A stretch of 64,000 nucleotides of DNA, taken from assembly GCA_964520345.1 (NCBI GenBank), contig CAZFMY010000027.1, positions 1,589 to 65,588 of the forward strand, given 5' to 3'. Numbering within the stretch: the stretch's first letter is position 1; every line of letters starts with the position of its first letter. Below the pieces are notes generated by a model, which did not search any database, had not been told where the DNA came from, and saw only the letters and a program-made list of their open reading frames with translations. Of this stretch, positions 16,249 to 32,067 are shown in pieces. The position numbers and the translations under genes are program-made. This DNA is from an uncultured Gemmatimonadaceae bacterium. GTDB lineage: Bacteria > Latescibacterota > UBA2968 > UBA8231.

Positions 16249-18598
16249 TGGTCCAAAAGCCCTCGAGCGATTCGGCGATGTGGGCGGTATCGCTCACCCG
16301 GTGTACGGTGCGCCAATGCGGGGGAAAGAGCTTGCGGTAGCGGCTCTGGCCGAAGCGCCGGTCTACGAGCAGTATCGCCCCGTGGTCGGTAGCGGTGCGG
16401 ATAACGCGGCCGGCCGCTTGCAGGACGCGATTCATGCCGGGGTAGGTGTAGGCGTATTCGAAACCAGGTATTTCGCGCTGGTCGAAGTAGTGGCGGATCA
16501 GGTCGCGTTCAAGGCAGATTTGTGGCAGTCCGACGCCCACAACCACGGCACCGACTAGGCGCTCGCCGACCAAGTCTATGCCTTCGCCGAAGATGCCGCC
16601 CATCACGGCAAAGCCCACGGTGGTATCGGGATTATCCTCGTTGAAGACGGCGAGAAAAGCCTCTCTTTCTCGCTCGGACATACCGCTTTCCTGGGTCAGG
16701 GTTGCGATTGCGGGATTTGCTTCGACAAAGCGTTCGACTACTTCATCCATATAGCGGTAGGAGGGAAAGAAGGCCAGGTAGTTGCCCGGGCGCTGGTGGA
16801 TGAGGTCGGCGATCAATTCGGCGATATCGCTGTACGTTTCGCTGCGTTTTTTGTAGGTCGTTTCGATGTGGTCTGCCAGGAGCAGGCGCAAGTTGTCGGG
16901 TGGGAAAGGTGAGGGCAGTTGCAGCATTCCATCTCCTTCTTCGCCACCGAGCAGGTCGCGGAAATAGTCGAGGGGCGAGAGGGTGGCCGAGAAGAATACA
17001 GCGGCACTGCCGCGTTCGAGGGCCCGGCGGATATTTTTGGATGGATCGAGGCAGAAGAGCCGGAAGTATACCTCCTTGTTTTCTTTCTCGGCATAGGTGG
17101 TATAATGTTCGTCGAAGAGTTCGGCGATCCGTTCGAAGCCCAAGGCCCGGAAATAGAATTCGATCAAGTGGTCCCAGAACGGGAGAGCGCTTCCTTGTGC
17201 GAGGACTTTTTCCGCAGCTTTTAACGCGTTGTGTACCAGCGCTATCAGGTCGGTGGAGAGTTTTGGGTCAATCCAGGATGAACCATCCCCTTCCTTCTCG
17301 ACCTTTTTGCCGAGTTTGACGAAATAGCGATTGAGTGCGTCGAGCTTCTTGCCGAGGTCGGGGTGGGTCTTGCCGACCTGGCGTTTGAGTCCCAGGATTT
17401 CGCTCTTGTAAAGTGTGGCTGAGAACATTTCGCGCGCCCGATCGACGAGGTTGTGCGCTTCGTCGATGAGCAAGGCGTATTCACCTTTCGCATCCTGGAA
17501 GAAACGCTTGAGGAAGGCTCGTGGATCGAAGACATAGTTGTAGTCGCAGGTAATGATATCGGACCAGAGTGAGAGATCGAGCGAGAATTCGAAGGGACAG
17601 ACCTTGTGTTTTTGCGCGTGTTCCTCGATGCGTAGCCGGGTAAAGGCATCGTGGGTGAAGATATCTTCCAGGGCATCGTTGATACGGTCGTAGTAGCCCT
17701 GGGCGAACTCGCATTGCTCGGGGTCGCAAGAACTGCCTCCGTTGGGTTTGAAGCAGATCTTGTCGCGGGCCGTCAGGGTTAGATTCTTGATGCGTGCCCC
17801 TCTTGCTCGGATTTCATCGATCGTTTTTTCGACGACGGTACGGCCCACGGTTTTGGCCGTCAGGTAGAAGATCTTTTCGGCATGACCCAACGCAAGGGCT
17901 TTTAAAGCCGGAAATAGGGTCGAGACCGTCTTGCCGATTCCAGTGGGAGCCTGGATGAAGGCGCGTCCCTGGTTCTCGATGGCGCGGTAAGTGGTTACGG
18001 CGAGATCGCGCTGGCCTGGTCGGTACTCGGCGAAAGGGAAGTCGAGAGCTTGAAGCGAGCGATCGCGCTCAACGCACCACTGGTGGTAGATTCGCGCCCA
18101 GTGCAGGTAGCGCTCGACGAGGTCGGAAAAGAACGCGGCGAGTTCATCGAGCGAGAAAGAGCGGCGATCTTCGTATAGCTGCCAGGTTTCGAGCTGCAGG
18201 TAGGTGAGCTGGACATCGATGCAGTCGAGGCCACTTTGTTCGGAGACGATAAAGGCGTAGACCTTGGCCTGAGCCCAGTGTGCGGGGTTTGCGGGAGGGA
18301 GTTCTTCGAACTCGGCTTCGGTGGTCTTGATTTCCTCGATGAGGACGGTATCGCCTTCGGCGAGCAGTCCGTCTATGCGACCGCTTATTTCGAGGGTGAT
18401 CGCCTCGGTGTCGACGAGGTAGGAGACAGGGACTTCCGACTGGTAGCCGGCGGGTCGAGCCCGCTGGACCTTCTGATGTCCGCGAGTGCCTTCGATCATG
18501 CGATCGGGTTGGGCGAAGCCTCCAGAGACCAGATCGCCTGAGCGCAGCACGAAACCGATGAGTTCGCGGACCGAGGTTTTGAGCAGGCGTGGGGGCAT
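16241..18598 (-). CDS. PD-(D/E)XK nuclease domain fused to XPD/DinG-family Fe-S DNA helicase
   Basis: 785 aa. N-terminal motifs are D..(GRIDGL), EEIK and QAKVY (RecB/Cas4-like). Helicase motifs are Walker A APTGIGKT and DEAH (LIDEAHNL). Four Cys (KIC, SSC, EQC, KVC) lie between motifs I and II, as in XPD/DinG. C-terminal Helicase_C_2-like block. Confidence 0.85.
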   Translation of the reverse strand: MPPRLLKTSVRELIGFVLRSGDLVSGGFAQPDRMIEGTRGHQKVQRARPAGYQSEVPVSYLVDTEAITLEISGRIDGLLAEGDTVLIEEIKTTEAEFEELPPANPAHWAQAKVYAFIVSEQSGLDCIDVQLTYLQLETWQLYEDRRSFSLDELAAFFSDLVERYLHWARIYHQWCVERDRSLQALDFPFAEYRPGQRDLAVTTYRAIENQGRAFIQAPTGIGKTVSTLFPALKALALGHAEKIFYLTAKTVGRTVVEKTIDEIRARGARIKNLTLTARDKICFKPNGGSSCDPEQCEFAQGYYDRINDALEDIFTHDAFTRLRIEEHAQKHKVCPFEFSLDLSLWSDIITCDYNYVFDPRAFLKRFFQDAKGEYALLIDEAHNLVDRAREMFSATLYKSEILGLKRQVGKTHPDLGKKLDALNRYFVKLGKKVEKEGDGSSWIDPKLSTDLIALVHNALKAAEKVLAQGSALPFWDHLIEFYFRALGFERIAELFDEHYTTYAEKENKEVYFRLFCLDPSKNIRRALERGSAAVFFSATLSPLDYFRDLLGGEEGDGMLQLPSPFPPDNLRLLLADHIETTYKKRSETYSDIAELIADLIHQRPGNYLAFFPSYRYMDEVVERFVEANPAIATLTQESGMSEREREAFLAVFNEDNPDTTVGFAVMGGIFGEGIDLVGERLVGAVVVGVGLPQICLERDLIRHYFDQREIPGFEYAYTYPGMNRVLQAAGRVIRTATDHGAILLVDRRFGQSRYRKLFPPHWRTVHRVSDTAHIAESLEGFWTNG

Positions 18599-18626
18599 GG
18601 TAGACTCTAAGAAAGATATGATATAT

Positions 18627-18649
18627 TTTAAGCGGCGCCATCGCTTAAA
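18627..18649. promoter_or_regulatory. Perfect 8-bp inverted repeat TTTAAGCG-N7-CGCTTAAA in the divergent helicase/mtnP intergenic region
   Basis: Read directly: tttaagcg (18627..18634), gcgccat, cgcttaaa (18642..18649). It lies 29-51 nt upstream of the helicase start. The same 8-mer recurs at 33445 and twice at 36147/36162. Confidence 0.4.
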
Positions 18650-18849
18650 TTTGCGTTTGAATATGGGACGAGAGGATTTTTCCAGTCCATATTTGGTAAT
18701 TCGGTGATGATAACCGATGTACTATTTTTCAGGGTGATACGGATTGAAATTCGTTCGGTAGTTTTTTTCGATCCTGGGAGCGACTGAGCTCTCGTTGGCG
18801 ATGATCTCCCCTAATTTCTACAAAGCTCAAGTCGTGCGAAAGGTATCTC

Positions 18850-19722
18850 ATGAGTGAATCCGTGGTCTTAGGTATCATCGGTGGTTCGGGTTTGTACCAG
18901 ATGGAGGGGGCTGAGACAGTTGCAGAACACGTTCTGGACACGCCCTTTGGCAAGCCCTCCGATGCCATCGTCGAGGCGCGAGTCAGTGGTCGCACGGCTT
19001 ATTTTTTGCCGCGTCACGGCAAGGGGCATCGGCTATTGCCTGCCGAAGTGCCCGCCCGGGCCAATATCCATGCCCTCAAGCAACTAGGCGTGACTCACGT
19101 GCTGGCGGTGAGCGCTTGCGGGATTATGCGCGAGGAGATCGAACCCGGAGATATGGTCGTGCCCGACCAGATCTTTGATCGCACTCGGGGTTCGCGTCCG
19201 TCGACCTTCTTTGGTGAGGGGATTGTTGGCCATCTGCCCTTTGCCGATCCTTTTTGCGCGGAGTTGCGCGAGATCGTCATCGACTCGGCGCAGGGAGCGG
19301 ATGCCAGGGTTCATGCGGGCGGTACTTATATCTGTATGGAAGGGCCGCTTTTTTCCACTCGGGCCGAGTCTCATTTCTATCGCAAGACCGTTGACGCAGC
19401 AGTGATCGGCATGACGGCTTTGCCCGAGGCCAAGCTGGCGCGCGAGGCGGAGCTGTGCTACGCGATGCTGGCGATGGGCACCGATTATGACTGCTGGCAC
19501 GAGGAGGAGGAGGACGTGACGATCGATCAGATCATCGCGGTGATGAAGGCGAATGGCGCGTTGGCCAACCAGATCGTTGCTGAGGTGGTCGCGCGTTTGC
19601 CCGAGCGATCGGATTGCGCCTGTCTGAGCGCTGCCCAATACGCGATTGTCACTGATCGGGCGATGATTTCGGCCGAGGCGAAGGAGCGGTTGAGAGTACT
19701 CTACGGGAAATATCTGGACTGA
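18850..19722 (+). CDS. mtnP: S-methyl-5'-thioadenosine phosphorylase
   Basis: 290 aa with GIIGGSGLY, TPFGKPSD and YFLPRHGKGHR motifs of MTAP / purine nucleoside phosphorylase family 2. Confidence 0.85.
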   Translation: MSESVVLGIIGGSGLYQMEGAETVAEHVLDTPFGKPSDAIVEARVSGRTAYFLPRHGKGHRLLPAEVPARANIHALKQLGVTHVLAVSACGIMREEIEPGDMVVPDQIFDRTRGSRPSTFFGEGIVGHLPFADPFCAELREIVIDSAQGADARVHAGGTYICMEGPLFSTRAESHFYRKTVDAAVIGMTALPEAKLAREAELCYAMLAMGTDYDCWHEEEEDVTIDQIIAVMKANGALANQIVAEVVARLPERSDCACLSAAQYAIVTDRAMISAEAKERLRVLYGKYLD

Positions 19723-19723
19723 G

Positions 19724-20818
19724 ATGGCCGATCTTTTCAGAATAGCACTCATAGGCGTGGGGCGGATCGGGATCTTTCACGCTCGGCATGTGCAGGAATT
19801 GGCGCGCGAGCGCGGAGATTGCGTGTTGGCAGCTCTAGTCGATGAATACGGCGATTTGGCGGCCGAAGCGGCGAGCGAATTAGAAGCGGATCAGGATACG
19901 CCGATCGACGGATTCAAGGACGTGGAGGAATTGGTTGCGGCCGATGCGGCTGACGGCGCCTTTATTGCCTCGCGCACGGAGAGTCATTATCGGGACGCCC
20001 GGACGCTAATCGATGCGGGATGGCGGGTGCTGCTGGAAAAACCGCTGACCCATTCTTTAGAGACGGCGCGGAAATTGGTCGCGCACCTGGACGCGGACGA
20101 ATTTCGCAGCACGGCGTTGATGCAGGCTTTTATGCGTCGCTTCGACGCACCTTTACTCCACGCCAAAGCGCTGCTGGATCAGGGGGCGATCGGTCAGCCA
20201 TTCAAGATCGTCTCGATCCTCGAAGACCCGGTTCCTCCCCCGACAGGGTATAAGAGCTCGGGTCTGCTTTCGGACATGGCGGTCCATAATATCGATGAAA
20301 TGCTCTGGTTAGGCGGGCGGTTGCCCGAGCGGGTGGCAGGTTTCGGCAATCTGCTCTACAACCAGCAGATTAGCTCGGTCAAAGAAGATTTCGACGATGC
20401 TTCGCTGCAGATCTATTTTCCCGAGGCACTGGTCGGTCAGGTGACGGTGAGCCGCAACCACGTCGCCGGCTATCGCAACGAGACTTGGATTTACGGACCT
20501 GAAGGGGTGGTACACGTGGGAGCTTTCAGTGCCGATCCGCTGATGGTTGCCGTCGAGGCGTTGGGGCGGCGGGGTATGATCGACCAGCGGGAATTCGCTT
20601 TGCGCGACTACGGGCCCGAAGTGCCCGTTTTTATTGAGCGCTTTGGGCCGGCGTACAAGGCCGAATTGTCCTATTACATCGACCAGTGTCGTGCCGGGGC
20701 GCCTTTTGCTGTCGATCATCGAGACGGGCTCAGGGCGTTGGAGATCGCGGTGGTGGGAAGTGGCGCTCTGTTCGAATCCGGGCAGGGTACTGAACTAAAT
20801 CTCAGCGGATGTGATTGA
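19724..20818 (+). CDS. Gfo/Idh/MocA family oxidoreductase
   Basis: 364 aa. N-terminal Rossmann motif IALIGVGRIGIFHA and an EKPL motif (LLEKPLTHS). Starts 1 nt after the mtnP stop. Confidence 0.8.
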   Translation: MADLFRIALIGVGRIGIFHARHVQELARERGDCVLAALVDEYGDLAAEAASELEADQDTPIDGFKDVEELVAADAADGAFIASRTESHYRDARTLIDAGWRVLLEKPLTHSLETARKLVAHLDADEFRSTALMQAFMRRFDAPLLHAKALLDQGAIGQPFKIVSILEDPVPPPTGYKSSGLLSDMAVHNIDEMLWLGGRLPERVAGFGNLLYNQQISSVKEDFDDASLQIYFPEALVGQVTVSRNHVAGYRNETWIYGPEGVVHVGAFSADPLMVAVEALGRRGMIDQREFALRDYGPEVPVFIERFGPAYKAELSYYIDQCRAGAPFAVDHRDGLRALEIAVVGSGALFESGQGTELNLSGCD

Positions 20819-20887
20819 GATCACGTTCTCGATTGGCAGCGCGCTGCACCTTGACGGATGCCCATTATGGGCACACGCATGAGGAGG

Positions 20888-20930
20888 CCCCGTCACACTG
20901 CTCCGGCAGTGTGACGGGGTTTTATTTTTT
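20888..20930 (+). terminator. Rho-independent terminator
   Basis: 13-bp perfect stem ccccgtcacactg / cagtgtgacgggg with loop ctccgg, followed by ttttatttttt. Located between convergent genes. Confidence 0.8.
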
Positions 20931-20964
20931 AATGCCGAAGAGGGCCGCTAGGCCTATGATCGCG

Positions 20965-22245
20965 TTAGCGTCTTTTGCCGCGTGGACTCCTGGTTTTCTC
21001 AATTCTTCTCAGGGTTTGGCTGTCTTGGACGGCATCGTAGATTTTGGCAAACGCCTGAGTGCCGTCGTCTGCGACCGGTACGCACTCGGAGCCGCTTTCG
21101 CAGATGGGCATGGCGTCGCGGGGATAGTCGTTGTGGAGGGCTTGTTTGGAGCAGCCGTAGTAGGTGACTTCGCCGTTGGCACGGGCGTAGCGATAGACGT
21201 GGCGTGGCGGATCGACCCAGCTGTAGTCGACCTGGTATTTTTTCAAGGCCTTCTGATCGACCTCGATGCCCAGGCCGGGCTCTTCCGGCACCCGGTAGTA
21301 ACCGCCGCGTAGCTGGATCGGATCGGTGAGAAGCTGGTGCTTCCAGATATTCATGCAGGTGATGGCCGGCCATTTGGCCTGGGGACAGACCGCTCCCAGG
21401 TGAGCTGCCCAGGTCGTGGTGATGCCCGTGCCGACGAGTTGTAGCCAGAAAGGTTTATTGGCGACATCAGTGACGGCCGATTGCCTGGAGATATTGTAGG
21501 CTCCAGCGCAGACTACGAAGCCGTCGGCAACGTCTTCGTGTAGGGTGGTGAGGATCGGCGGTGATCCGTAGTGCATGGCCACGGGGCGGCGGATTTGATT
21601 GCGAATTTGGGCATTGCCGGCGACGTCGGATTGGGGTATGGGCGTTTCGAGCATGGCTACCTGCTCGTATTGTTCCAGGGTTGCTAGAAATTCGACGGCA
21701 CTGGCGGCATTGCCGAGCGTACCGTTGAAGTCGAGGTCGAGTTTGAACTGTGGCGGCACGGCCTTGATGATGGTGCGGATAGAGTCGTGCAGGTCGTACC
21801 AGGTTCGGGCCTTTAGTTTGGCGGTCATATACCCCTGTTTGACAGCGTCCGCGCACTGGCGGGCCCAGTCTCTGGCCGGCATGTCCATTGCCCACCACGA
21901 GAGCGGGCACCATTCGCGCACTTTGGTACCGAGGAGGCGATAAGCCGGGGTCCCCAGGGCCTTGCCGACTGCGTCGAAGAGGGCCTGCTGGACCCCGGCA
22001 CCCAGGTGGTCTTCCCAGAGTAGGTCACCGGCGGAGCGGCCGACGATGCGTTCTTCAATATCTTCGGGGACCTTGGCCCAAGTGTAGTTGGGGATCGTTT
22101 CACCCCAGCCGATCGTGCCATTGGTGAGGGTGATTTTGCAGAGTTGGACGATGCGCCAATGCGGCAGCCAGTACTGCATGTGCTGGTTGGTGTGGTTGGT
22201 GAAGGGTACGTCCAGGTGAATGAGTTCTACGGATTTGATCTGCAT
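20965..22245 (-). CDS. Enolase-superfamily (mandelate racemase/muconate lactonizing enzyme-like) protein, divergent
   Basis: 426 aa. Capping-domain N-terminus, a KxK motif (AKLKAR), DLDFNG and MLETP metal-ligand contexts. Later catalytic positions are not obviously conserved. About 70 aa of C-terminal extension. Confidence 0.7.
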   Translation of the reverse strand: MQIKSVELIHLDVPFTNHTNQHMQYWLPHWRIVQLCKITLTNGTIGWGETIPNYTWAKVPEDIEERIVGRSAGDLLWEDHLGAGVQQALFDAVGKALGTPAYRLLGTKVREWCPLSWWAMDMPARDWARQCADAVKQGYMTAKLKARTWYDLHDSIRTIIKAVPPQFKLDLDFNGTLGNAASAVEFLATLEQYEQVAMLETPIPQSDVAGNAQIRNQIRRPVAMHYGSPPILTTLHEDVADGFVVCAGAYNISRQSAVTDVANKPFWLQLVGTGITTTWAAHLGAVCPQAKWPAITCMNIWKHQLLTDPIQLRGGYYRVPEEPGLGIEVDQKALKKYQVDYSWVDPPRHVYRYARANGEVTYYGCSKQALHNDYPRDAMPICESGSECVPVADDGTQAFAKIYDAVQDSQTLRRIEKTRSPRGKRR

Positions 22246-22334
22246 CGAAAAAACCTTTCGCCAGAGGTGGGGTGGGCTATATACGGCAAGGGCAGCGCGG
22301 TGTCAAGCGGGGTGAAGCCTTATATTCTCTCACT

Positions 22335-24458
22335 ATGGAAATTCGCCAATTTGCCGAGCGGGTGCTCTTCGGCACGCGCTGGGACGACAAACTCGTTGCG
22401 CTGGATCGCTACGAGGATCAGGCGCCGGGCCTGGGGATCGAAACTCCGCAAGCACCGGGTCGTCCGGTGGGGCTGGGCCTGGACGAGTGGCGCGGGCGGG
22501 ACAAACTCAAGTTCGGTGATGTGCGCAATCTCCACACTGAGAAGGAACGCGGGTTGGTGCTGCACTTTTTCGCCAATCACGAGTTGCTGGCGCTGGAGTT
22601 GATGGCGTTGGCGTTGCTCAAGTTCCCGCAGGCACCGGAGCGGTTTCGCCGCGGATTGGTACAGACCCTCAAAGACGAACAGCAGCACCTGCAGCTCTAC
22701 CTGCGGCGGATGGAAGAGGTCGGAGTAGAGTTTGGCGAGATACCCGTCAGCGATTTTTTCTGGCAGGCGATCGGGCCGATGCAGAGCCCGAAGGAGTACG
22801 TCACCGGCTTGAGTTTGACGCTGGAGCAGGCCAATCTCGACTATGCAGTGCACTACGCCGAAGTGTATCGAAAACTGGACGATCTCAAGACGGCGGCGAT
22901 TCTGGACCGGGTCTATCGCGACGAGATCGGGCATGTCAAATACGGGTTGGTGTGGTTCAATCGCTGGCGAGAGGCAGAATTAAGCGAATGGGAGGCTTAT
23001 CGAAGGGGGTTGCGTCCACCCTTGGGTCCTGCGCGGGCCAAGGGAATCGGTTTCAATCGCCCTGGTCGCTTAGAGGCCGGGCTTTCTCCCGACTATATTG
23101 CCGAGTTGGAGCTCTTCTCGCAGTCCAAGGGGCGTTGTCCAGCCGTCTACTGGTTCAACGGCAACTGCGAGGGACAGGTGGCGCTGGGGCGTCCGGGTTT
23201 TACGCCGTCGCGGCTGGCGGCTGATTTGGAGGACGACTTCCAGGCTCTGCCGATGCTTTGCTCTGCTCGTGACGATGCGGTGCTCTTGCGGCGGAAGCCG
23301 TCGGCGGATTTTCTGCGCCGTTTGCAGGAGTTGGGATTTACAATTCCCGAATTTTTCGAGTATAGTGCGAGCGGTCTGGAGGGTTTTGCCTCGCGCAAGG
23401 TCAATGCGCTCAAGCCCTGGGGTTGGAGTCCGGACAGCGCCCGGTTTCTGGCGCCTTTAGAAGAAGGTTTGCCGTCTGGTGGGGAAGGGTTGTGCTGGAG
23501 CGGAACCATTCGACAGCTATACTCTAAGTCCTGGAGTGCTGATCGTTTAAGTGATTTTCTGGCGGTGCCGGACGAAGATTTTTTCTGTGGTTCGGAGGTG
23601 GTGGGCCTGGGGTGTGCGACCGTCGATGAGGTGCTCTTGGCTCTGGAGCATTTTCGCGCTGCGGGTTTCGGCGAAATAGTCATCAAGGCGATATACGGCT
23701 CAGCAGGTCGAGATCAAATCCACGCTCGCGAAGGCCAGTTGCGCGAGGGGCAGCGCGGCTGGTTGGAGAAGATCTGTCGGCGGCAGGGCCAGGTTGTCGT
23801 CGAGCCGTGGCTCGACAAGGTGGCCGATCTTTCGTTGCACTTCGATATAGAGGCAACGGGGGAAGCTCAGGTGATGGGCTGGACGCGCTTTTTGACCGAT
23901 GATCGCGGTCAGTATCGCGGTGCGTTCGTCCACCAATTCCTCGCTGGTCTCGATATAGAGGTGAAGAGGTTTCTCTATGGCGATGGGCGCGATCCCCGTC
24001 GTTTGAAGCGGTTGGGTGAGCGCTTGGCCGAATTCCTGGCTGGCGAAGTGGCTGCTGCGGGGTATCGGGGTCCGGTCGGCGTCGATGCGCTGGTCTACCG
24101 CGATGGTGGCACGCTGCGCTTGAAACCAATTGTGGAAATCAACCCGCGCACGACGATGGGGCGGATGGCGCTCGGACTCCGGCCAGCAGTTAATTCGGCG
24201 CGTACGGCGCTGTGGCTGGTGCTCTCTCAGCGCGAGGTAGCGCTAGCGGGTTTTGCCGATATTGCGGCGTGTGCCGATCGGTTGGAGGAGCAGTATCCGG
24301 CGCGGCTTTTTTCCAGCGGCAAAGAACTGAGCGAGGGGGTAATCTTTACTACCGATCCCGCTCAGGCCCGCTCTTTCGCCACAGTTTTGCTGGTCGGCGA
24401 GTCGCTGGAAGCGTGCAGGGACTACCTGGCTGCGGTGGGGCTGGTGTTGGTGCGCTAG
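22335..24458 (+). CDS. Fusion protein: N-terminal DUF455 ferritin-like di-iron domain and C-terminal ATP-grasp domain
   Basis: The DUF455 block is HFFANHELLALELMALALLKFP..DEQQH..LEQANLD..DEIGH (two E...ExxH pairs). The C-terminal half has IVIKAIYGSAGR, VVVEPWLD, GVDALVY and VEINPRTTMG, typical of ATP-grasp. An alternative GTG start at 22272 follows GAGGTGG. Confidence 0.65.
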   Translation: MEIRQFAERVLFGTRWDDKLVALDRYEDQAPGLGIETPQAPGRPVGLGLDEWRGRDKLKFGDVRNLHTEKERGLVLHFFANHELLALELMALALLKFPQAPERFRRGLVQTLKDEQQHLQLYLRRMEEVGVEFGEIPVSDFFWQAIGPMQSPKEYVTGLSLTLEQANLDYAVHYAEVYRKLDDLKTAAILDRVYRDEIGHVKYGLVWFNRWREAELSEWEAYRRGLRPPLGPARAKGIGFNRPGRLEAGLSPDYIAELELFSQSKGRCPAVYWFNGNCEGQVALGRPGFTPSRLAADLEDDFQALPMLCSARDDAVLLRRKPSADFLRRLQELGFTIPEFFEYSASGLEGFASRKVNALKPWGWSPDSARFLAPLEEGLPSGGEGLCWSGTIRQLYSKSWSADRLSDFLAVPDEDFFCGSEVVGLGCATVDEVLLALEHFRAAGFGEIVIKAIYGSAGRDQIHAREGQLREGQRGWLEKICRRQGQVVVEPWLDKVADLSLHFDIEATGEAQVMGWTRFLTDDRGQYRGAFVHQFLAGLDIEVKRFLYGDGRDPRRLKRLGERLAEFLAGEVAAAGYRGPVGVDALVYRDGGTLRLKPIVEINPRTTMGRMALGLRPAVNSARTALWLVLSQREVALAGFADIAACADRLEEQYPARLFSSGKELSEGVIFTTDPAQARSFATVLLVGESLEACRDYLAAVGLVLVR

Positions 24459-24865
24459 CGGGTGTATAAGAGCGCCTTTAGTTCCGGTGGCAAGCCGGGT
24501 CGGCCGTTGTGGTTGAGACTGGTGCCGATGAGGCGGCCGTGCAGTACGTGCACCCCGTCGGGTTCTTTGTAGATATCCTGGACAAAGCAGAACCGCAGGC
24601 GACTTTCCGCTACTACGCTCAATCTGACGGTAAAGCGGTCGCCGCTGACTAGGGGGGCTTTGTAGTCGATCTCGACGCGGGTGAGTACGAGGTCGTGGCC
24701 CGCCTCGTGGAAGCGGGCAAAGCTGAGGCCGAGACTGGCCAGATACTGGTGGCGAGCGTGTTCGAGGTAATTCTGATAAACCGCGTTGTTGACAAGGCCC
24801 TGGAGATCGCATTCGTAGTCGCGGACGTCCAGAGTGAGTTCGAAATCGCAGGGTTCGGCGGGCAT
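24455..24865 (-). CDS. Hotdog-fold acyl-CoA thioesterase (YbgC/4HBT family)
   Basis: 136 aa. DVRDYECDLQGLVNNAVYQNYLEHAR is typical of the 4HBT class. Its stop shares a CTAG tetranucleotide with the convergent upstream gene. Confidence 0.8.
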   Translation of the reverse strand: MPAEPCDFELTLDVRDYECDLQGLVNNAVYQNYLEHARHQYLASLGLSFARFHEAGHDLVLTRVEIDYKAPLVSGDRFTVRLSVVAESRLRFCFVQDIYKEPDGVHVLHGRLIGTSLNHNGRPGLPPELKALLYTR

Positions 24866-24945
24866 GTTTTCCTGTGTCTCAAGACCTGATGGTAGCTTCG
24901 GATCGGCTGATTGGACAATAAACGAGCAGTTTTAATCTAGTCACT

Positions 24946-25848
24946 TTAATCCGAGAGGAAAATCCCCAGGACGTAGAATGCACTGGTGGTGATGGTCAGC
25001 GCGACGAAGGCCAGGGTGTGATTGCGGGAAGATCGGCAGGTTGTTGCGCTCTGGTTGTGGGACGGGATTCTGGGCAGGAGTACGAGTGCTGCGAGGAGGG
25101 GCAGGGTGGGGAGATTCAAGGGAGAGAGAAAGAAGTTGTGAGGATGAATCAGAAAGAGGGAAAATTGGGCCAGGACGCCGCAGCAGACGGCCAGCGCACC
25201 GGCCCGCTTTGGACCGATTACGGCGGCGAAGGTTCGTTTTTTCGCTGCCTGATCGGCCGCCGAGTCGGGAAGGGCGAAGGCGATGGCGACGGCGAGCTGG
25301 TGACCGCAATAGGGCAAGATGAAGCCGAACTCGGCGGATGTGTCAGCCTGAACGTAGCAGCCTACTACGGGTAGGACTAAACCCATGCCAAGAGCTTGGA
25401 GGAATTCGCCACCACCGCGGTAGTTGAGGCGTAGTGGGGGGAGGCTATAGGCCCAGAGCAGCAGGGTGCCCAGGGCGAAGAGCAGCAGGGTCCAGGGGCG
25501 GTTGAGGTAAAGGGTGAAGAGGAAGCCCAGAGCGAAGACCAGCACGGCGGCGAGCGCACCGGCGACAAAGAGTGCGCGCGGGGTGAGCAGACCTTGCTGC
25601 AGGACGCGGGAGCCGCCGGAAAACGGGGAGGGCGTTTCGTTGTGGCCGTCGGCACCACGATCGGCCCAGTCGTTCCAGAAGACGATGTAGAGATGCATGG
25701 TCAGACTATAGCTGGCGAGGAGCAAGGCGGTGGTCCAGGAAAAGATCCCACTTTGTTTAAAGGCGAGGAACTGGCCGAAGATCAACGGCAGCGCCAGGTT
25801 GATTTGAGCGGGTGGGCGGGCCGCCTGGACCCAGCTGGAGAATTTCAT
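24946..25848 (-). CDS. UbiA-family aromatic prenyltransferase
   Basis: 300 aa, polytopic, with an Asp-rich motif NDWADRGAD after TM2. Confidence 0.75.
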   Translation of the reverse strand: MKFSSWVQAARPPAQINLALPLIFGQFLAFKQSGIFSWTTALLLASYSLTMHLYIVFWNDWADRGADGHNETPSPFSGGSRVLQQGLLTPRALFVAGALAAVLVFALGFLFTLYLNRPWTLLLFALGTLLLWAYSLPPLRLNYRGGGEFLQALGMGLVLPVVGCYVQADTSAEFGFILPYCGHQLAVAIAFALPDSAADQAAKKRTFAAVIGPKRAGALAVCCGVLAQFSLFLIHPHNFFLSPLNLPTLPLLAALVLLPRIPSHNQSATTCRSSRNHTLAFVALTITTSAFYVLGIFLSD

Positions 25849-25926
25849 AGTTGCTCACAAGATAAGGCGTCTTGTTGAGTCTGGGGAACTTAGCTATTTT
25901 GTGGCTCCGCAAAAAAGGAGGATGAT

Positions 25927-26889
25927 ATGTTCAAAATCTCGGTGTGGCATGGAGATCTTTCGGAATCGTATCTGCGTTATGTGACCCAGCTCGGGGTCGA
26001 TTGTCTGGACTTCGGATCGGGGGACTACTTTCCCGGTGTCAAGGAGCAGGGCTATCCCGATCTCGATGAAGTGCTCAAGATCAAAAAGAAAATCCGTTCC
26101 TGGGGTTTGGATATCAATCGCGTGACACTGCCGGATATGACCGAGCGATTCATGCTGGGAGAGGAAGGTGGTGAGGTGGAGTTGGAGAATGCCGTCAATG
26201 CGCTGAAGGTTTTTGCCGAGGCGAAGTTGCCGATTGCTCGCCAGCGTTTCCATGGCGATACCTTCCAGTGGATGCTCAAGCGCTGGAATTCGCCTCGGCG
26301 CGGCGGCTACGGCTACCGGGCCGAGAGTATCGGTCGAGCCGATCAAAACGAAGGCCCCCCTTCGCACGAGGAATTGAATGCCTGGTGGGAGCGTTTTTGC
26401 CAGGTTTATCAGGCACTGGTGCCCATCGCTGAAGACGGCGATATCAAGCTGGCGATCCACCCCTCTGATTCGCCATTGCCGGATACGCCGCTGGGTGGAT
26501 TGGGATTTCACAAGGTCATCGATGCGTTTCCCAGTCGCCAGGTGGGGTATCTCTACTGCTGCGGCACCCGCGCCGAGGCCGGGGGATTGCCGCTGGTGCT
26601 CGATGAGGTGCATAATTATGGGCGAAAAGGGCGTATTTTCATGGTGCATCTGCGCAATGTACGGGGAAGCTTCGCCACTGCCGGAGGTTTTGAAGAGACT
26701 CTGCTCGACGATGGCGATATGAATATGGCGAAGATTTTATTGGAGCTGGATCGGGTGGGGTTTGATGGGTGCATCAACCCGGATCATATTCCTGCGCTGG
26801 AAGGGGATGAGGGGGTGCTGACGCGGGGCTTGGCGTATTCGGTCGGATATATAAAGGCGCTCTTTGCAATGTTGGCGGCGGTCAGGTAA
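25927..26889 (+). CDS. Mannonate dehydratase (UxuA)-like TIM-barrel protein, paralog 1
   Basis: 320 aa. The C-terminal block VHLRNVRG...F.E..LDDGDMNM..IL..L..VGFDGCINPDHIP matches the UxuA family signature region. AAGGAGG SD sequence upstream. Confidence 0.65.
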   Translation: MFKISVWHGDLSESYLRYVTQLGVDCLDFGSGDYFPGVKEQGYPDLDEVLKIKKKIRSWGLDINRVTLPDMTERFMLGEEGGEVELENAVNALKVFAEAKLPIARQRFHGDTFQWMLKRWNSPRRGGYGYRAESIGRADQNEGPPSHEELNAWWERFCQVYQALVPIAEDGDIKLAIHPSDSPLPDTPLGGLGFHKVIDAFPSRQVGYLYCCGTRAEAGGLPLVLDEVHNYGRKGRIFMVHLRNVRGSFATAGGFEETLLDDGDMNMAKILLELDRVGFDGCINPDHIPALEGDEGVLTRGLAYSVGYIKALFAMLAAVR

Positions 26890-27015
26890 AATCGAAGGTA
26901 TTATTTATCAGTTGTTTCAGCGCATTGCCGACCCTCGGGCTCGAGGAGCGGAAATAATCCCTGCTCCGCTTGAGGTGGCTGAGCGCTTGGACTATGCCTA
27001 TTAAGGGGCAATAGA

Positions 27016-28209
27016 ATGGTCGATACGATGAAGATTGCGGCGATAATCAGTGAATATCGGCCCGGATCGCATGCGGATGTGATCGTCGGCAAGTTTTTAA
27101 GAGGCTTTCCGACCGATGAGGGCTTTTTTGCACCGCGAGTCGAGCTGGCGTCGATGTATATCGATTTGTTCCCCGACAACGATATGAGCCGGGATATGGC
27201 CGAGGAGTTCGAGGTGCCGATCTACAATAGCATTCCGTCGGCGCTCTGCCTGGGAGGCAAGGAACTGGCGGTGGATGGGGTGCTCTTGATCGGAGAGCAC
27301 GGAGATTATGCCTGGAACGAAAAAGATCAACAGCTCTATCCGCGCCGTCATTTTATGGAGCAGATCTGTGGAGTGATGGCGACTTCGGGCAGGGCGGTGC
27401 CGGTGTTTAACGACAAGCATTTGTCGTATAACTGGACCGATGCTAAGTGGATGTACGATCGAGCCCGGGAATTGGGAGCGGCGTTCATGGCTGGATCGTC
27501 GCTGCCAGTGAGCTGGCGCAAACCGTGGGTCGAGCATCCGTTGGAAGCACCTTTGGAAGAGGCAGTGGCGATTGGATTTTCGGGCTTGGATATCTATGGA
27601 TTTCATACCCTGGAAGTGCTCCAGTGCATGGTGGAGCGGCGCCAGGGGGGTGAGACCGGGGTGGAGGCTGTGACGTGTTTGGAAGGAGCTGCGGTATGGC
27701 AGGCGGCGGGTGAACTATGGTCGCGGGAGTTGGCGGAGGCGGCCTGTGCAGAGATCGTAGAGAAGCCCGAGGGGAGTATGGAGGAGCACTGTGAGAATCC
27801 CGCGCTTTTTGCGGTAGAGTATAAAGATGGGTTGAAGGGAGCGGTGCTGATGCTGAATGGCTATGTCCACGATCTAGCTTATGCGGCTCGGGTGGGTGGG
27901 CAGGTACAGGCCTGCGAGTTTCATGCGCAAGGGCATGGTGGACCCATAGGCGCCTATGCCCATTTCAGCTATCTCTCGCTCAATGTCGAGGAGATGTTCC
28001 TGAGTGGTGTGGCGCAGTATCCGGTCGAGCGCACTTTGCTGGTCAGCGGGGTGCTTGAGGCGGCATTGACCTCTCGCTATGAGGGCTATACCCGCCTGGA
28101 GACGTCGTGGCTGGATGTGGCGTATCGCTCGTACGATGATTTTAAGTGGCGTCCGCGAGGTCCTCGCCCGACCGGGGCTTGTTTGGATCCGTGGCCGCCG
28201 CAAAAATGA
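27016..28209 (+). CDS. Hypothetical protein, possibly a degenerate Gfo/Idh/MocA-like fold
   Basis: 397 aa. Motif spacing resembles Gfo/Idh/MocA, but GxGxxG is replaced by IISEYRPGSH and EKP by NDKH. Assignment is weak. Confidence 0.4.
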   Translation: MVDTMKIAAIISEYRPGSHADVIVGKFLRGFPTDEGFFAPRVELASMYIDLFPDNDMSRDMAEEFEVPIYNSIPSALCLGGKELAVDGVLLIGEHGDYAWNEKDQQLYPRRHFMEQICGVMATSGRAVPVFNDKHLSYNWTDAKWMYDRARELGAAFMAGSSLPVSWRKPWVEHPLEAPLEEAVAIGFSGLDIYGFHTLEVLQCMVERRQGGETGVEAVTCLEGAAVWQAAGELWSRELAEAACAEIVEKPEGSMEEHCENPALFAVEYKDGLKGAVLMLNGYVHDLAYAARVGGQVQACEFHAQGHGGPIGAYAHFSYLSLNVEEMFLSGVAQYPVERTLLVSGVLEAALTSRYEGYTRLETSWLDVAYRSYDDFKWRPRGPRPTGACLDPWPPQK

Positions 28210-28218
28210 GGAGGGAAA

Positions 28219-29043
28219 ATGATTAAGATCTCGGGTTTTGCCGACGAGATCGCGGCGGATGCCGATGTGCAGATCGGGACATTGCAGGAGGCCGGACTCG
28301 CCCATCTGGAATTGCGCGCTGTCGGTGGCACGGGCGTGCTGGATATGAGGGCGGAAGATGTGGAGTCGTTTAAAGAGCGGTTGGCGGCGGCGGGAATCGC
28401 GGTTTCGTCCATTGGCTCGCCGATCGGCAAGGTACAGATCCGCTCGGACCTGGAGGAGCACTTTGCACGCTTCGAGATCGCGTTGGCTAGGGCACGGGAA
28501 TTTGCCACCCCCTTTATCCGCGTCTTCTCATTTTACCACCAAGGCGAAGAGCCAGAGGATTGTCGCGACGAAGTGCTGGCGTTTTTTGCTCGGATGGTCG
28601 ATCGTGCGGAGGCCGAGGGGCGGGTGCTCTTACACGAGAACGAGAGCCATATTTATGGCGACGTGCCTGCGCGTTGTGCCGATTTGCTCCGAACCATTGA
28701 TAGCCCCCATCTGCGTGCGGCCTTCGATCCGGCTAACTTCATTGCCTGTGGGGCGGATCCGCTGGCCGAAGCCTGGCCGCTGCTGGATCAGTTCGTTGAT
28801 TATTTTCACATCAAGGATAAAATAGCCGACTCGGGCCGGGTGGTCCCGGCCGGGTGCGGCGATGGGGGCTTACCCGAGATTTTGACTCGGGCGGTAGCTC
28901 GCGGTTTTGCGGGTTTTCTCTCTATAGAGCCGCATCTCAAAGCCGATGATCCCGAGTATGGTGGCGACGGTCCCGAGCGCTTTCTCAAGGCTGTTGCCGG
29001 GTTGCGGCAAGTGCTGGACGGGGCGAGTATCCAAGAGGGCTGA
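28219..29043 (+). CDS. Sugar phosphate isomerase/epimerase (xylose isomerase-like TIM barrel)
   Basis: 274 aa. MIKISGFADEI... at the N-terminus, then LHENE and SIEPH metal-ligand contexts typical of the AP_endonuc_2 family. Confidence 0.8.
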   Translation: MIKISGFADEIAADADVQIGTLQEAGLAHLELRAVGGTGVLDMRAEDVESFKERLAAAGIAVSSIGSPIGKVQIRSDLEEHFARFEIALARAREFATPFIRVFSFYHQGEEPEDCRDEVLAFFARMVDRAEAEGRVLLHENESHIYGDVPARCADLLRTIDSPHLRAAFDPANFIACGADPLAEAWPLLDQFVDYFHIKDKIADSGRVVPAGCGDGGLPEILTRAVARGFAGFLSIEPHLKADDPEYGGDGPERFLKAVAGLRQVLDGASIQEG

Positions 29044-29248
29044 ATGGTGCGGGGGGATGAGGGCTTCCCAATCCCCGGTTCATAGCAGGTCTCCAGTTAT
29101 TAGATACAATACCGATGCTCGCCGATATGTGGCGGAAGTTCTCTGTTGGCACTCAGGTTGACAGGTCGTAGTATTGGATTTGGTTTGCACCGGACCATTG
29201 CGTATCTTGCCCCAGACACAGGTTTTCTACCAAGGAGGATTAAACGCT

Positions 29249-30277
29249 ATGAAAGGTCTCTTCAGCCTCGCGCTGGCCCTTGTGGCCAGTGCCGTCTTCG
29301 CCCAGGCCCCATCGGGTGATCCGTCGATCATCGCCAAAGGTGCCGAGCTAGAAGTGCTCTTTGACGACGCCTTTTTCACTGAGGGGCCGGCGGTGGCTCC
29401 AGACGGCTCGGTTTATTTCAGCGATATCACTTTTACATCTGGATCAGTGATGCAGGCTGGTTATATCTGGCGCTACGATCCCGAGACCGGCGAGACCAAG
29501 ATCTATCGATCGCCGAGTGGTATGTCAAACGGTCTCAAATTTGATGCTATGGGTCGCTTGATTGCTGCCGAGGGTGCCGACTTCGGAGGCCGGAGACTGA
29601 CGCGTACGGACTTGAGCACTGGAAAGGCCGAAATCATTGCAGGGCTTTACGAAGGCAAACCCTTCAATGCGCCCAACGATATTTCTATAGATGAGCAAGG
29701 CCGGATCTACTTCAGCGATCCGCGCTATCTCGGTCATGAGCCGATTTATCAGCCGGTGTTCGGGGTTTACCGCATCGATCCCGACGGTTCGATTGAGCGG
29801 ATCATAACCGATGCCGGCAAGCCCAATGGCGTTTGCGTTTCGCCCGACCAGCAGTCGTTCTACGTGGTTAGCAACGACAACGGCAATACCGATACCTTCA
29901 GCGGTGTGCCCGTACACAAAGGTCGGATGGCGCTTTTGGCTTACGATCTCCACGCTGACGGCACGGCGACCTTCCGAGAAGTGCTGGTCGATTATGCTCC
30001 GCAAGATGGTCCGGACGGTTTGGTAGCGGATGTAGATGGAAACCTCTACGTGGCAGTGCGGGATGTGACGCGGCCCGGTATTGTGGTCTATTCGCCTAAG
30101 GGAGAAGAGCTGGCCTATATCCCCACGCCGGAAGTTCCGACCAATGTAGCGTTTGGTCACGGGGAAGACAGCAAGATTCTCTATGTCACCTACGGTGGTG
30201 GCGCGCCACCCGAAAACCCAGGGGTACTGGCCAAGATCAAGGTCGAGAAGGATGGGTACCACCTGCCGGCCAAATAA
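29249..30277 (+). CDS. Secreted SMP-30/gluconolactonase/LRE-like beta-propeller
   Basis: Start at ATG 29249 after AAGGAGGA. Signal peptide MKGLFSLALALVASAVFAQA|P. Family blocks FTEGPAV, SNGL, PNDI and PDGL. Confidence 0.8.
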   Translation: MKGLFSLALALVASAVFAQAPSGDPSIIAKGAELEVLFDDAFFTEGPAVAPDGSVYFSDITFTSGSVMQAGYIWRYDPETGETKIYRSPSGMSNGLKFDAMGRLIAAEGADFGGRRLTRTDLSTGKAEIIAGLYEGKPFNAPNDISIDEQGRIYFSDPRYLGHEPIYQPVFGVYRIDPDGSIERIITDAGKPNGVCVSPDQQSFYVVSNDNGNTDTFSGVPVHKGRMALLAYDLHADGTATFREVLVDYAPQDGPDGLVADVDGNLYVAVRDVTRPGIVVYSPKGEELAYIPTPEVPTNVAFGHGEDSKILYVTYGGGAPPENPGVLAKIKVEKDGYHLPAK

Positions 30278-30280
30278 TAA

Positions 30281-31990
30281 ATGACCGCACTCGACTGGGC
30301 CGTAGTCCTGGTCCTCAACGGCGGCATCGTCGCCTATAGCCTGTTCACCTTCCGCAATAAGGGAGCGAGCTTCGACTGGTACTTAGCGGCTAAGTCGATG
30401 CCCTGGTGGGTGATCGGGCTATCGGCATTTGGCACCGCCGTCGATAGCGGCGACTACGTCGGCATTGTTGGTGGCTCTTATAAGATGGGCCTTTCGCAAC
30501 TGGCGCAGTGGTGGCTGGGTATCGCCGTGGGGTGGGCGGTGCTCAGTTTCTTCGTCATCGTGCCGATGTATCGGTCCGGGGTTTTCACCAATGCCGAGTG
30601 GCTGGAGTTTCGTTTCGGTCCGGCCGCCCGGCTCCTGGCAGTTCTGATCAATATCCAATCGCGGACCAATGTACTGGGCAATATCTTCTTTTCGATGTAT
30701 CTGGTGCTCAATGTCGTTGCCGGGATCGAGGAGAAGACCTGCTGGCTGGTAGTGGTCGGCGTGGCGATCACTTCGGTGCTCTATATCGTGCGCGGTGGCT
30801 TGCGCGCTGGAGTGCTGACCGACGCGTTGCAGAGCATTACGATGATCGTTGCTTCGTTCGTGCTCTGGGGTTTCGTTTATTCGGGTTTGGGGGGATGGGA
30901 CGGGGTGAGAGAGCGGTTGGAAGTGGTAGAGGAGGGGTTGTCCGATACGCTTTTGCACGTGGGTGGTTATTCGCCCGAGGGCGTGCCTGCGTTGTTGGTG
31001 ATCTTCGGTTTTCTGGTGGTCCTGACGACCTATGCGGTGATTAACCAGTACGAGGCCATTCGTTTTTTGGGAGCCCGTTCGGAGTGGGATTTCAAAATGG
31101 CGGCGTTGGTGGCTAGTATTGCCACGGCGATCTGTCTCTTCTTCAATGTCAGTCTGGGGCCGATGGCACGGGCCCAGTTTCCGGGGCTGGAGTTGGTCGA
31201 TCAGGCCTATCCGCTGATGATCAAGGAGTATTTGCCCGCCGGGCTGGTCGGGCTGGTGGTCGCGGGCCTGGTGGCGGCGGGCTATTCGACGTTCGATTCG
31301 ATCGGCATCGGCATTTCCTCGCTTTTTGTTCGCGATGTCTACGCGCGATTTATCGTCAAAAACGGAGACGATGCGCACTACACCAGAGTCGGCCGCATCT
31401 CGGTACCGTTCATCCTGGCGCTGGGCTTTCTCTATGTGCCCTTTCTCGGTGAGAAGGGGATGCTGCTCTTTTATTTGCGATTGGCCGGGGCGATCGCGGT
31501 GCCGCTGATGACGGTGATTCTTATGGGGGTGTTCACGCGAGTGCATCGCGGGACCGGGATCATTGGTCTGCTGGTGGGACTCGGTTACGGGATCTCGGCG
31601 ATCCTGGCCGATTTCAACGAGTGGCCGCTGCCGGTTTGGTATCAGAACACGTGGTGGACCTATTTGTGGAATATAGTGCTGCCAGCAGCTTCGATGCTGC
31701 TGGCATCGAAGCTGATCGATTTGCAGCGCGGACCGGCTTCCGATGAGGAATTACGCGGGCTGGTCTATGCGCGACACGAAGATCCGGTGGCGCTGCGCGC
31801 ATTGATGGGGGGTCGGCTCAAGGCGCTGAAGGGGACCTGGATAGAGCAGACGCTGATCAAGGCGGAGGTGCGGCCGGAGTATCCGTTTGAAGTCGGCCCG
31901 GAGGGCCCGCAGTGGTATTTGCGCCCGGGGTTGTGGATGGGAGTCTATCTGGCGTTAGCGAGCTTTCTGCTCTTTGTGGTCTTGTGGTAA
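30281..31990 (+). CDS. Sodium:solute symporter family (SSF) transporter
   Basis: 569 aa, about 13-14 TM. N-terminus FDWYLAAKSMPWWVIGLSAFGTAVDSGDY is typical of SSF. Confidence 0.85.
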   Translation: MTALDWAVVLVLNGGIVAYSLFTFRNKGASFDWYLAAKSMPWWVIGLSAFGTAVDSGDYVGIVGGSYKMGLSQLAQWWLGIAVGWAVLSFFVIVPMYRSGVFTNAEWLEFRFGPAARLLAVLINIQSRTNVLGNIFFSMYLVLNVVAGIEEKTCWLVVVGVAITSVLYIVRGGLRAGVLTDALQSITMIVASFVLWGFVYSGLGGWDGVRERLEVVEEGLSDTLLHVGGYSPEGVPALLVIFGFLVVLTTYAVINQYEAIRFLGARSEWDFKMAALVASIATAICLFFNVSLGPMARAQFPGLELVDQAYPLMIKEYLPAGLVGLVVAGLVAAGYSTFDSIGIGISSLFVRDVYARFIVKNGDDAHYTRVGRISVPFILALGFLYVPFLGEKGMLLFYLRLAGAIAVPLMTVILMGVFTRVHRGTGIIGLLVGLGYGISAILADFNEWPLPVWYQNTWWTYLWNIVLPAASMLLASKLIDLQRGPASDEELRGLVYARHEDPVALRALMGGRLKALKGTWIEQTLIKAEVRPEYPFEVGPEGPQWYLRPGLWMGVYLALASFLLFVVLW

Positions 31991-32067
31991 TCGCTTCCGA
32001 GGGACCGGCTGCTAATATTCGTTAGTGTGATCGTGTTCTCCCGGCGGTATCTACTGAATATATACCT

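Follow-up and report, generated by a model that had tools for sequence, protein, structure and literature searches.

The window analysed here is a stretch of 64,000 nucleotides from an uncultured Gemmatimonadaceae bacterium (Latescibacterota in the GTDB lineage; GenBank assembly GCA_964520345.1, contig CAZFMY010000027.1), and the gene in question lies at positions 22335..24458 on its plus strand. This gene encodes a single protein in which a DUF455 di-iron domain is followed by an ATP-grasp ligase. The gene is a genuine and evolutionarily old fusion, and both of its active sites are, to judge from alignments, under purifying selection. As the best explanation, to which we assign a rough probability of 0.45, we propose that the product is a bifunctional enzyme: its di-iron domain would activate O2 and its ATP-grasp ligase would form amides, with the same amino-acid-derived small molecule as the substrate of both.

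The fusion gene and its distribution

The gene lies within an uninterrupted open reading frame (ORF) at 22272..24458 on the plus strand, in which the ATG at 22335 gives a protein of 707 amino acids (aa) plus a stop codon, starting with MEIRQFAE. Because nearly all homologues begin with MEI at the equivalent position of the alignment, this ATG was taken as the correct start. The motifs quoted in an initial annotation, which had been made from the sequence alone and had described a DUF455 domain joined to an ATP-grasp ligase (HFFANHELLALELMALALL, DEQQH, LEQANLD, DEIGH, IKAIYGSAGR, VVVEPWL, GVDALVY and VEINPRTTMG), were all found in the translation. A whole-chain AlphaFold2 (AF2) model of the 707-aa protein, built on an alignment of 30 sequences, had a mean predicted local distance difference test (pLDDT) score of 90.8 and a predicted template modelling (pTM) score of 0.79, the latter suggesting a fixed arrangement of the two domains. 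The inter-domain linker comprises about eight residues and is itself conserved in the alignment of homologues (S264, G266, R267 and P269).

Among the matches listed in a search of 5.8 billion proteins, colinear homologues numbered more than 100; almost all were 700–755 aa long, with 48–96% identity. When a single genome for each GTDB species was scanned, at least 510 relatives were confirmed by tblastn, and the loci of the best 80 of these were used for a census of full-length fusions. Within these 80 loci the fusion was found in Latescibacterota (including closed chromosomes of 4.5–7.3 Mb; a homologue from one such closed genome is 74% identical to the window protein) and in metagenome-assembled genomes labelled Gemmatimonadota, in many Verrucomicrobiota (Limisphaerales, Pedosphaera) and in Planctomycetota, as well as in SAR324, Lentisphaerales, Nannocystaceae, Silvanigrella, Oligoflexia and Bdellovibrionota. 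Loci assigned to Silvanigrella, Pedosphaera and Gemmatimonas all derive from metagenome-assembled genomes. Myxococcota were also counted among the groups with a colinear full-length fusion, and the fusion is retained in at least eight phylum-level groups. When the C-terminal domain alone was compared with 1.84 billion cluster representatives, 3829 clusters matched at E<1e-3 and 441 (at 50% identity) at E<1e-30; the majority of the top 150 clusters had a length of about 700 aa, with the ligase beginning at residue 261–285. The domain order is constant, with DUF455 first and the ligase from near residue 265, and the matches of intermediate length were N-terminally truncated fusions, with no alternative architecture among them. 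The fusion gene is vertically inherited across whole phyla.

An artefact, in which two separate genes had been joined by a frameshift (a source of error named in the initial annotation), misassembly or read-through, found no supporting point and is for practical purposes excluded, because 175 full-length fusions could be aligned and independent assemblies, the closed chromosomes among them, supply hundreds of colinear full-length homologues, while the ORF is unbroken, the linker is conserved, the single-chain model is confident and the 80 genome loci likewise gave no sign of a frameshift.

The DUF455 and ATP-grasp domains

The N-terminal domain (residues 1–265, 22335..23129 on the plus strand) is a DUF455 ferritin-like four-helix bundle, as indicated by Pfam, the domain model, Foldseek and invariant ligands. 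PF04305 (DUF455) matched residues 40–255 over profile positions 36–246 of 247, with E=4.4e-45 and a score of 154.6 bits against a gathering cutoff of 34.3. The putative di-iron ligands are E83, E115-x-x-H118, E164 and E197-x-x-H200, and their spacing, E83-(32)-E115xxH118-(46)-E164-(33)-E197xxH200 (32-3-46-33-3), is ferritin-like; E/ExxH/E/ExxH spacing of this kind is the classical di-iron-carboxylate pattern of the ferritin-like superfamily. H77, E88 and D169 are also conserved. Across the 175 aligned full-length fusions, which share 35–74% identity with the window protein, E83, E88, E115, H118, E164, D169, E197 and H200 are each present in all 175 and H77 in 174, and the second-shell residues N81, Q116, Q165, N167 and Y170 are also invariant over this range of identity. 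The ligands, together with H77 and D169, are invariant in stand-alone DUF455 proteins (Ralstonia, Sinorhizobium) and in fusions from three other phyla.

The model of the N-terminal domain (pLDDT 91.2, pTM 0.90) contains long helices at residues 69–96, 102–129, 152–180 and 184–211, plus extra segments. The DUF455 domain of the fusion is about 100 residues larger than a ferritin bundle, and its extra segments are strongly conserved (for example, PLxPxRAKGIGF). Its Foldseek matches were weak (best E=0.017) and were all ferritin-like di-metal proteins, namely bacterioferritins, aldehyde-deformylating oxygenase (ADO), class I R2 and small rubrerythrin-like proteins; a close solved relative was not found by this search. 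NCBIfam gave a weak match to R2-like ligand-binding oxidase (R2lox, E=3e-4). MiaE was absent from the top 50 Foldseek matches and no MiaE model of Pfam or NCBIfam matched, so that the relationship to MiaE stated in the initial annotation stands at the superfamily level and no further. We found no published functional study of any DUF455 (PF04305) protein, the mentions in the literature being incidental, and none of an ATP-grasp and ferritin-like combination; in agreement with the earlier statement that no characterised example was known, no published paper, curated family model or solved structure was found that gives DUF455 or the ligase clade a function. The literature places the DUF455 family in bacteria, plants, fungi and corals, and mentions in passing a DUF455 protein of Methylobacillus that falls when lanthanum is present. 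From its fold and ligands, the N-terminal domain most likely has a pair of bound irons, at which O2 would be activated for the hydroxylation or some other oxidation of a substrate.

The C-terminal domain (residues 266–707, 23130..24455 on the plus strand) is an ATP-grasp ligase that comprises a pre-ATP-grasp-like N-subdomain and an ATP-grasp core, as indicated by Foldseek and conservation. No ATP-grasp model of Pfam or NCBIfam passed its threshold for the window protein (best ATP-grasp_3, E=0.17), and sequence and profile searches of the PDB with the whole protein and the homologue alignment profile gave chance matches only. In relatives, PF02222 ATP-grasp (2.4e-5), PreAtp-grasp (3.4e-4) and DUF3182 (3e-4) matched below their gathering scores. 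Since these sequence models and PDB searches remained below threshold, the ATP-grasp call of the initial annotation had rested on short motifs; hmmscan recovered PF04305 and none of the ATP-grasp families, and it was the AF2 model with Foldseek that proved the second assignment as right as the first. The model matched ATP-grasp enzymes with a probability of 1.00 and E=1e-12 to 1e-9, and has their three-subdomain alpha/beta fold. Foldseek ranks 1–19 were occupied by 8ynd/8ynq (a Streptomyces peptide ligase), PGM1 (3wvq/3wvr), SAOUHSC_02373 (7r8q/7r8p) and BesA (8yi6), with E=1e-12 to 1e-10, template modelling (TM) scores of 0.61–0.67 on the target and 13–18% identity; PurK, PurT and biotin carboxylases followed after rank 19.

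The key residues of the ligase are the strand lysine K451, the hinge E490-P-W-L493, D584 and E601-I-N603-P-R605, after which comes a conserved C-terminal 'FTTDP' subdomain. D584, N603 and R605 are present in 175/175 fusions, K451 in 174, E601 in 173 (the other two having Asp) and E490 in 166. Their roles (strand Lys, hinge Glu, an acidic residue with the E-x-N ligands of Mg2+, and a catalytic Arg) were assigned by motif analogy to biotin carboxylase (E276...E288xN290xR292) rather than by residue-level superposition. Taken over the 175 fusions, the residue conservation in both domains therefore points to strong purifying selection on both active sites. Among the nearest structural relatives, SAOUHSC_02373 is the enzyme named LdmS, which joins L-Asp to L-Met, and BesA is a gamma-glutamyl ligase. 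The substrates that PGM1 joins are a non-proteinogenic amino acid and a small core peptide. SAOUHSC_02373 is described as an L-amino-acid ligase and has been linked to sulfur amino-acid metabolism in staphylococci (PMC9486568). Because these relatives ligate amino acids or peptides, amide-forming chemistry of the amino-acid type is the likeliest, and the ligase most likely makes an amide rather than a thioester bond on an amino-acid-type substrate. By its modelled fold it is nearest to the L-amino-acid and PGM1-type peptide-ligase clade, from which it is too divergent for sequence models.

Matches to the ligase domain were also seen in Bacteroidales, as 'hypothetical proteins' of about 400 aa with 25–26% identity over 78% of the length of the domain and E values down to 4e-19. 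One of these, in Parabacteroides distasonis (NZ_OY725768.1; 5992..7200 of locus L088), has a DUF349 gene on one side and an esterase gene on the other, and Prevotella records contain such proteins too. Their sequences suggest a gut-bacterial branch of this ATP-grasp clade that annotation has missed. A tblastn search of plasmids detected only unannotated 'hypothetical' ligase homologues of Bacteroidales and Streptomyces, and lone DUF455 genes.

Separable halves and genomic neighbourhood

The two halves of the fusion also occur apart. Ligase-only relatives are 438–471 aa long, and three of them were confirmed on contigs (L084, L085 and L091). L085 has the gene order of the window without DUF455, namely an enolase-family gene (−), the ligase gene (+) and a thioesterase gene (−); L091 has the enolase-family (−) and ligase (+) genes, and L084 the enolase-family (−), amidohydrolase (+) and ligase (+) genes. 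No DUF455 remnant was detected by tblastn at these three loci, whose enolase-family proteins are 72–75% identical to that of the window. The halves are separable, because the enolase-family gene stays with the ligase in relatives without DUF455. All catalytic residues are kept in the stand-alone ligases, and repeated loss of DUF455 is suggested by their dispersal among the fusion clades in a rough neighbour-joining tree; a further apparent stand-alone ligase (P0214) is probably a fragment of a fusion. When split genes were sought, DUF455 was not found adjacent to stand-alone ligases, and no such ligase was found near the stand-alone DUF455 genes on Ralstonia and Sinorhizobium replicons.

The enolase-family gene of the window (20965..22245, minus strand; MR_MLE_C E=4e-24) encodes an atypical member of the enolase superfamily (MR/MLE). 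It is directly adjacent and divergent to the ligase gene in 20 loci, accompanying it with or without a fused DUF455, and its product is 80–86% identical across the lineage, where the fusion is about 73% identical. The initial annotation had taken this gene as an incidental neighbour; it is instead the most conserved ligase partner in the lineage of the window. The closest PDB sequence was that of the uncharacterised MR/MLE protein 2qde (6e-17), followed at about 1e-10 by muconate cycloisomerase-like proteins and N-acylamino-acid racemases (NAAAR). In HMMER alignments, the KxK motif (K133, K135) and the metal ligands D171 and E199 are kept, His224 stands in place of the third metal-binding Asp of MLE/NAAAR enzymes, the beta-6 lysine is absent, and a conserved C-terminal extension of about 80 residues contains conserved Cys residues. 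Since the beta-6 Lys and the third metal Asp are missing, the protein is not a standard two-base racemase or o-succinylbenzoate synthase (OSBS), and it scored higher on dehydratase and cycloisomerase models than on OSBS. The amidohydrolase of L084, encoded between the enolase-family and ligase genes, matched NCBIfam PRK09061 below the cutoff (E=5.6e-64), a model formerly labelled D-glutamate deacylase in CDD, and L085 carries a C45 amide acyltransferase/hydrolase. These lineage neighbours (the enolase-family protein, which has NAAAR enzymes among its closest characterised PDB relatives, the amidohydrolase and the C45 amide acyltransferase/hydrolase) point weakly to amide or N-acyl-amino-acid chemistry.

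As described in the initial annotation, the fusion gene appears monocistronic between the divergent enolase-family gene and a convergent thioesterase gene. The divergent intergenic region (22246..22334) is 89 bp long and presumably holds a shared promoter; no sigma-70 consensus was found in it. The thioesterase gene (24455..24865, minus strand; 4HBT_2 E=1.9e-15) overlaps the 3′ end of the fusion gene by 4 bases and encodes an acyl-CoA thioesterase of the 4HBT (YbgC/FadM) type (TIGR00051 E=4e-15, below the cutoff); it follows the ligase gene in 22 related loci, L085 and L086 among them, and is syntenic within the lineage only. The next downstream gene on the same strand begins only at 25927. 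Upstream, a strong hairpin at 20884..20923 (plus strand) has a near-perfect 18-bp stem with a T-run after it. It occupies the gap in which the 3′ ends of an IolG-like oxidoreductase gene and the enolase-family gene converge and is, from its sequence, likely to be a bidirectional terminator. The fusion gene looks monocistronic in the window because this hairpin separates it from the oxidoreductase and MTAP genes. MTAP is encoded at 18850..19722 (plus strand; TIGR01694, 303 bits against a cutoff of 275), and the IolG-like GFO/IDH/MocA oxidoreductase at 19724..20818 (plus strand); the upstream synteny of both is lineage-specific. The MTAP gene lies at most 8 kb upstream of the fusion gene in 14 loci; in L003 (9032..9925) the distance is 75 bp, and in L002 (8032..10019) the oxidoreductase gene overlaps the start of the fusion gene by 19 bp. 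The recurrent order of the Latescibacterota type is helicase (−), MTAP (+), [oxidoreductase (+)], [enolase-family (−)], fusion (+) and thioesterase (−). The MTAP synteny may be a lead to metabolism related to methionine or methylthioadenosine, LdmS, a structural neighbour, being linked to sulfur amino acids. A methionine-salvage link via MTAP was rejected as anything more than a lead: the synteny is real, but it is confined to one lineage and a terminator intervenes in the window.

For a wider view, ORFs were called and clustered in 83 loci. The blocks conserved within a phylum were housekeeping genes, such as the flagellar FliL/M/N genes of Bdellovibrionota and, in Limisphaerales, those for a DEAD-box helicase and an ABC-F ATPase; a macro domain protein and GAPDH were other neighbours conserved in a single phylum. 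Across these loci the surroundings were of the housekeeping type, and the fusion gene was not located in a multi-gene biosynthetic cluster.

Three further observations concern the surrounding DNA. A 397-aa ORF (27016..28209, plus strand) is conserved as cluster c3 in 15 related loci and matched neither Pfam nor NCBIfam models. On either side of it is a TIM-barrel gene, one UxuA-like/xylose-isomerase-like (25927..26889) and the other of the AP_endonuc_2 type (28219..29043). The GC skew, (G−C)/(G+C), is positive in all 2-kb bins of the window (1..64000), with values of 0.04–0.24, mostly 0.10–0.24; it is independent of gene orientation, and the strand bias is unusually strong and uniform. In L003, the fusion gene is followed after a few kb by an unrelated Zorya-like defence locus (13920..21301; ZorA-like, EH_Signature and SNF2/Mrr helicase genes).

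Proposed function, alternatives and significance

In the mechanism that we favour, the DUF455 site (E83, E115xxH118, E164, E197xxH200) would bind two irons, activate O2 and oxidise a substrate, and the ligase would phosphorylate a carboxylate with ATP/Mg2+ (K451, D584, E601, N603, R605) and hand the acyl-phosphate to an amine, giving an amide bond. Both domains would serve one short pathway, in which either the oxidised product feeds the ligase or the ligation product is then oxidised; it would yield a modified metabolite resembling a dipeptide or an N-acyl amino acid. This bifunctional reading is supported by the conservation of both sites, the constant domain order, the short and conserved linker and the pTM of 0.79. 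A precedent has also been published: amino-acid-modifying di-iron oxidases often co-localise with ATP-grasp amino-acid ligases, as seen for 1447 genes of heme-oxygenase-like di-iron oxidases (HDO) and exemplified by mangotoxin MboA with MboC/D (PMC13185094), and one of the structural matches of the ligase, BesA, belongs to the Bes pathway. Since the gene lies outside any biosynthetic cluster and has been passed on vertically in whole phyla, a cellular metabolite is a likelier product than a strain-specific natural product.

Several results weigh against this reading. No neighbour was conserved across phyla among the 83 loci, so the gene context gives no pointer to the substrate. The likeness to amino-acid ligases is moderate (TM 0.6–0.67, 13–18% identity), with PurK, PurT and biotin carboxylase close behind; the literature gives no function for DUF455, and the oxygenase chemistry is extrapolated from the fold. 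Finally, intact DUF455-free ligases in the same synteny and ligase-free DUF455 genes in Proteobacteria indicate that the coupling is not obligatory. The fusion is dominant rather than obligatory, and strict two-step channelling is therefore weakened, not refuted. The initial annotation had envisaged one polypeptide that couples oxidation with ligation; the single polypeptide holds, whereas its sequential action on one substrate is a hypothesis, and the di-iron domain is no strict requirement for the ligase, since ligases that lack DUF455 occur in the same gene order.

A broader version of the bifunctional reading is a tentative possibility. DUF455 enzymes in general would be O2-dependent di-iron oxidases of amino-acid-type carboxylates or amines, and the fusion would make, by channelling, a so-far unrecognised oxidised dipeptide or N-acyl-amino-acid, to which the Latescibacterota pathway would add an enolase-superfamily enzyme with a His-containing metal site. 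If this were true, the fusion would be a 'Rosetta stone' and the first functional handle on the DUF455 family.

The DUF455-free ligases bear most directly on a different explanation, which we consider doubtful, in which the ligase is autonomous and DUF455 is an accessory that tunes or stabilises it, as an iron, O2 or redox sensor, a peroxide- or ferroxidase-type protection or an oligomerisation scaffold. Complete ATP-grasp orthologues without DUF455 occur in the same gene context, apparently after repeated loss; bacterioferritins are the closest structural matches of the N-terminal domain, and the stand-alone DUF455 gene of Sinorhizobium adjoins a peroxiredoxin gene. However, the invariance of the six ligands together with H77, E88, D169 and the second-shell residues is what one expects of a catalytic site that has a defined substrate, the domain extends about 100 residues beyond a ferritin bundle with strongly conserved segments, and the fusion is kept by most of the ligase clade.

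It is unlikely, and rather more so, that a macromolecule is modified, with the ATP-grasp domain adding an amino acid to a protein (RimK/TTL-like) or a peptide (PGM1-like) and the di-iron domain hydroxylating the same target. Analogies for such a function are MiaE acting on tRNA and the ligation-then-hydroxylation of EF-P and hypusine. A lone, vertically inherited gene with housekeeping-type surroundings in every phylum is consistent with this idea, as are the wide occurrence of DUF455 as a lone gene in bacteria and the peptide nucleophiles used by PGM1 and 8ynd, the best structural matches. In Verrucomicrobiota the gene sits between DEAD-box helicase and ABC-F ATPase genes, but this synteny comes from only 4–5 closely related genomes. 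There is no linked target gene, RimK-type enzymes are missing from the 50 highest-ranking structural matches, and the lineage partners (enolase superfamily, amidohydrolase and thioesterase) are small-molecule enzymes.

An ATP-grasp carboxylate-CoA ligase of an acyl-CoA or quinone-type pathway, with a Coq7-like or BioE-like DUF455 oxidase and neighbours that are loose MenC/MenI/MenA analogues, is improbable. The window does contain, on the flanks of the fusion gene, the enolase-family gene, the 4HBT thioesterase gene (weak MenI match, E=1.2e-10), syntenic in 22 loci, and a UbiA-family gene whose best NCBIfam match is 1,4-dihydroxy-2-naphthoate (DHNA) polyprenyltransferase (E=7.6e-21), and the ferritin-like di-iron oxygenase BioE acts on acyl-CoA or acyl carrier protein substrates (PMC12704756). 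These MenC/MenI/MenA-like matches are, however, far below curated cutoffs, the UbiA gene is adjacent in five loci only and no further quinone genes lie nearby; a menaquinone-like pathway was rejected as the main model on these grounds. Moreover, the enolase-family protein favours dehydratase/cycloisomerase models over OSBS and lacks the beta-6 Lys and third metal Asp, no recognised CoA ligase was present among the 50 structural matches listed, and the ligand spacing of BioE (27-3-69-30-3) is unlike that of DUF455.

Set beside known systems, the proposed bifunctional enzyme combines familiar parts in a new way. With PGM1, 8ynd, LdmS and BesA it shares the three-subdomain ATP-grasp fold with a pre-ATP-grasp-like N-subdomain, the D...ExNxR motif and the strand lysine; it differs from them in the low identity given above, in its added N-terminal di-iron domain and C-terminal 'FTTDP' subdomain, and in lying outside a biosynthetic cluster. 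Like the Bes (BesC+BesA) and mangotoxin (MboA+MboC/MboD) systems (PMC13185094), it would join O2-dependent di-iron modification of an amino acid to ATP-grasp amide ligation. Their oxidases, however, are HDO enzymes and separate proteins encoded in strain-specific clusters, whereas the fusion has a ferritin-like DUF455 that is covalently attached and encoded by a lone, vertically inherited gene; no HDO structure was found among the Foldseek matches of its N-terminal domain. Stand-alone DUF455 proteins of about 275 aa (Ralstonia solanacearum AUS44774.1, Sinorhizobium meliloti UIJ93556.1 and Methylobacillus Mfla_0898) correspond to the same domain from end to end, and H77, E83, E115, H118, E164, D169, E197, H200 and R245 are invariant between them and the fusion; the identity is 26–29%, and the fusion subfamily has signatures of its own, HFFANHELLA, TLEQANLDY and PLxPxRAKGIGF. 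MiaE, Coq7, ADO, BioE and R2lox share the four-helix bundle and the E/ExxH/E/ExxH site, and none of them is fused to a ligase; MiaE, Coq7, ADO and R2lox have no significant sequence relationship to DUF455. The published ligands of BioE (E26/E53/H56/E125/E155/H158) were compared with those of DUF455 by their published positions only.

The fusion is a new and widespread architecture that joins two known catalytic folds, one of them from a family, DUF455, without a characterised member; the separability of its halves and the enolase-family partner are also new. The ligase clade is large (the 441 clusters at E<1e-30) and invisible to current libraries of hidden Markov models. DUF455 is an old Pfam family of wide distribution, whose di-iron site is intact and for which no reaction was found, and ferritin-like di-iron enzymes carry out some of the hardest oxidations in biology; the reaction of BioE was assigned only in 2025. 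The conserved covalent tie to an ATP-grasp domain of the amino-acid-ligase type narrows the search for a DUF455 substrate to carboxylate or amine small molecules, and a single gene construct allows expression and screening, which makes the question of DUF455 function directly testable. The fusion family occurs commonly in phyla that have been little studied (Latescibacterota, Limisphaerales, SAR324 and Bdellovibrionota), where its product may be an unrecognised common metabolite.

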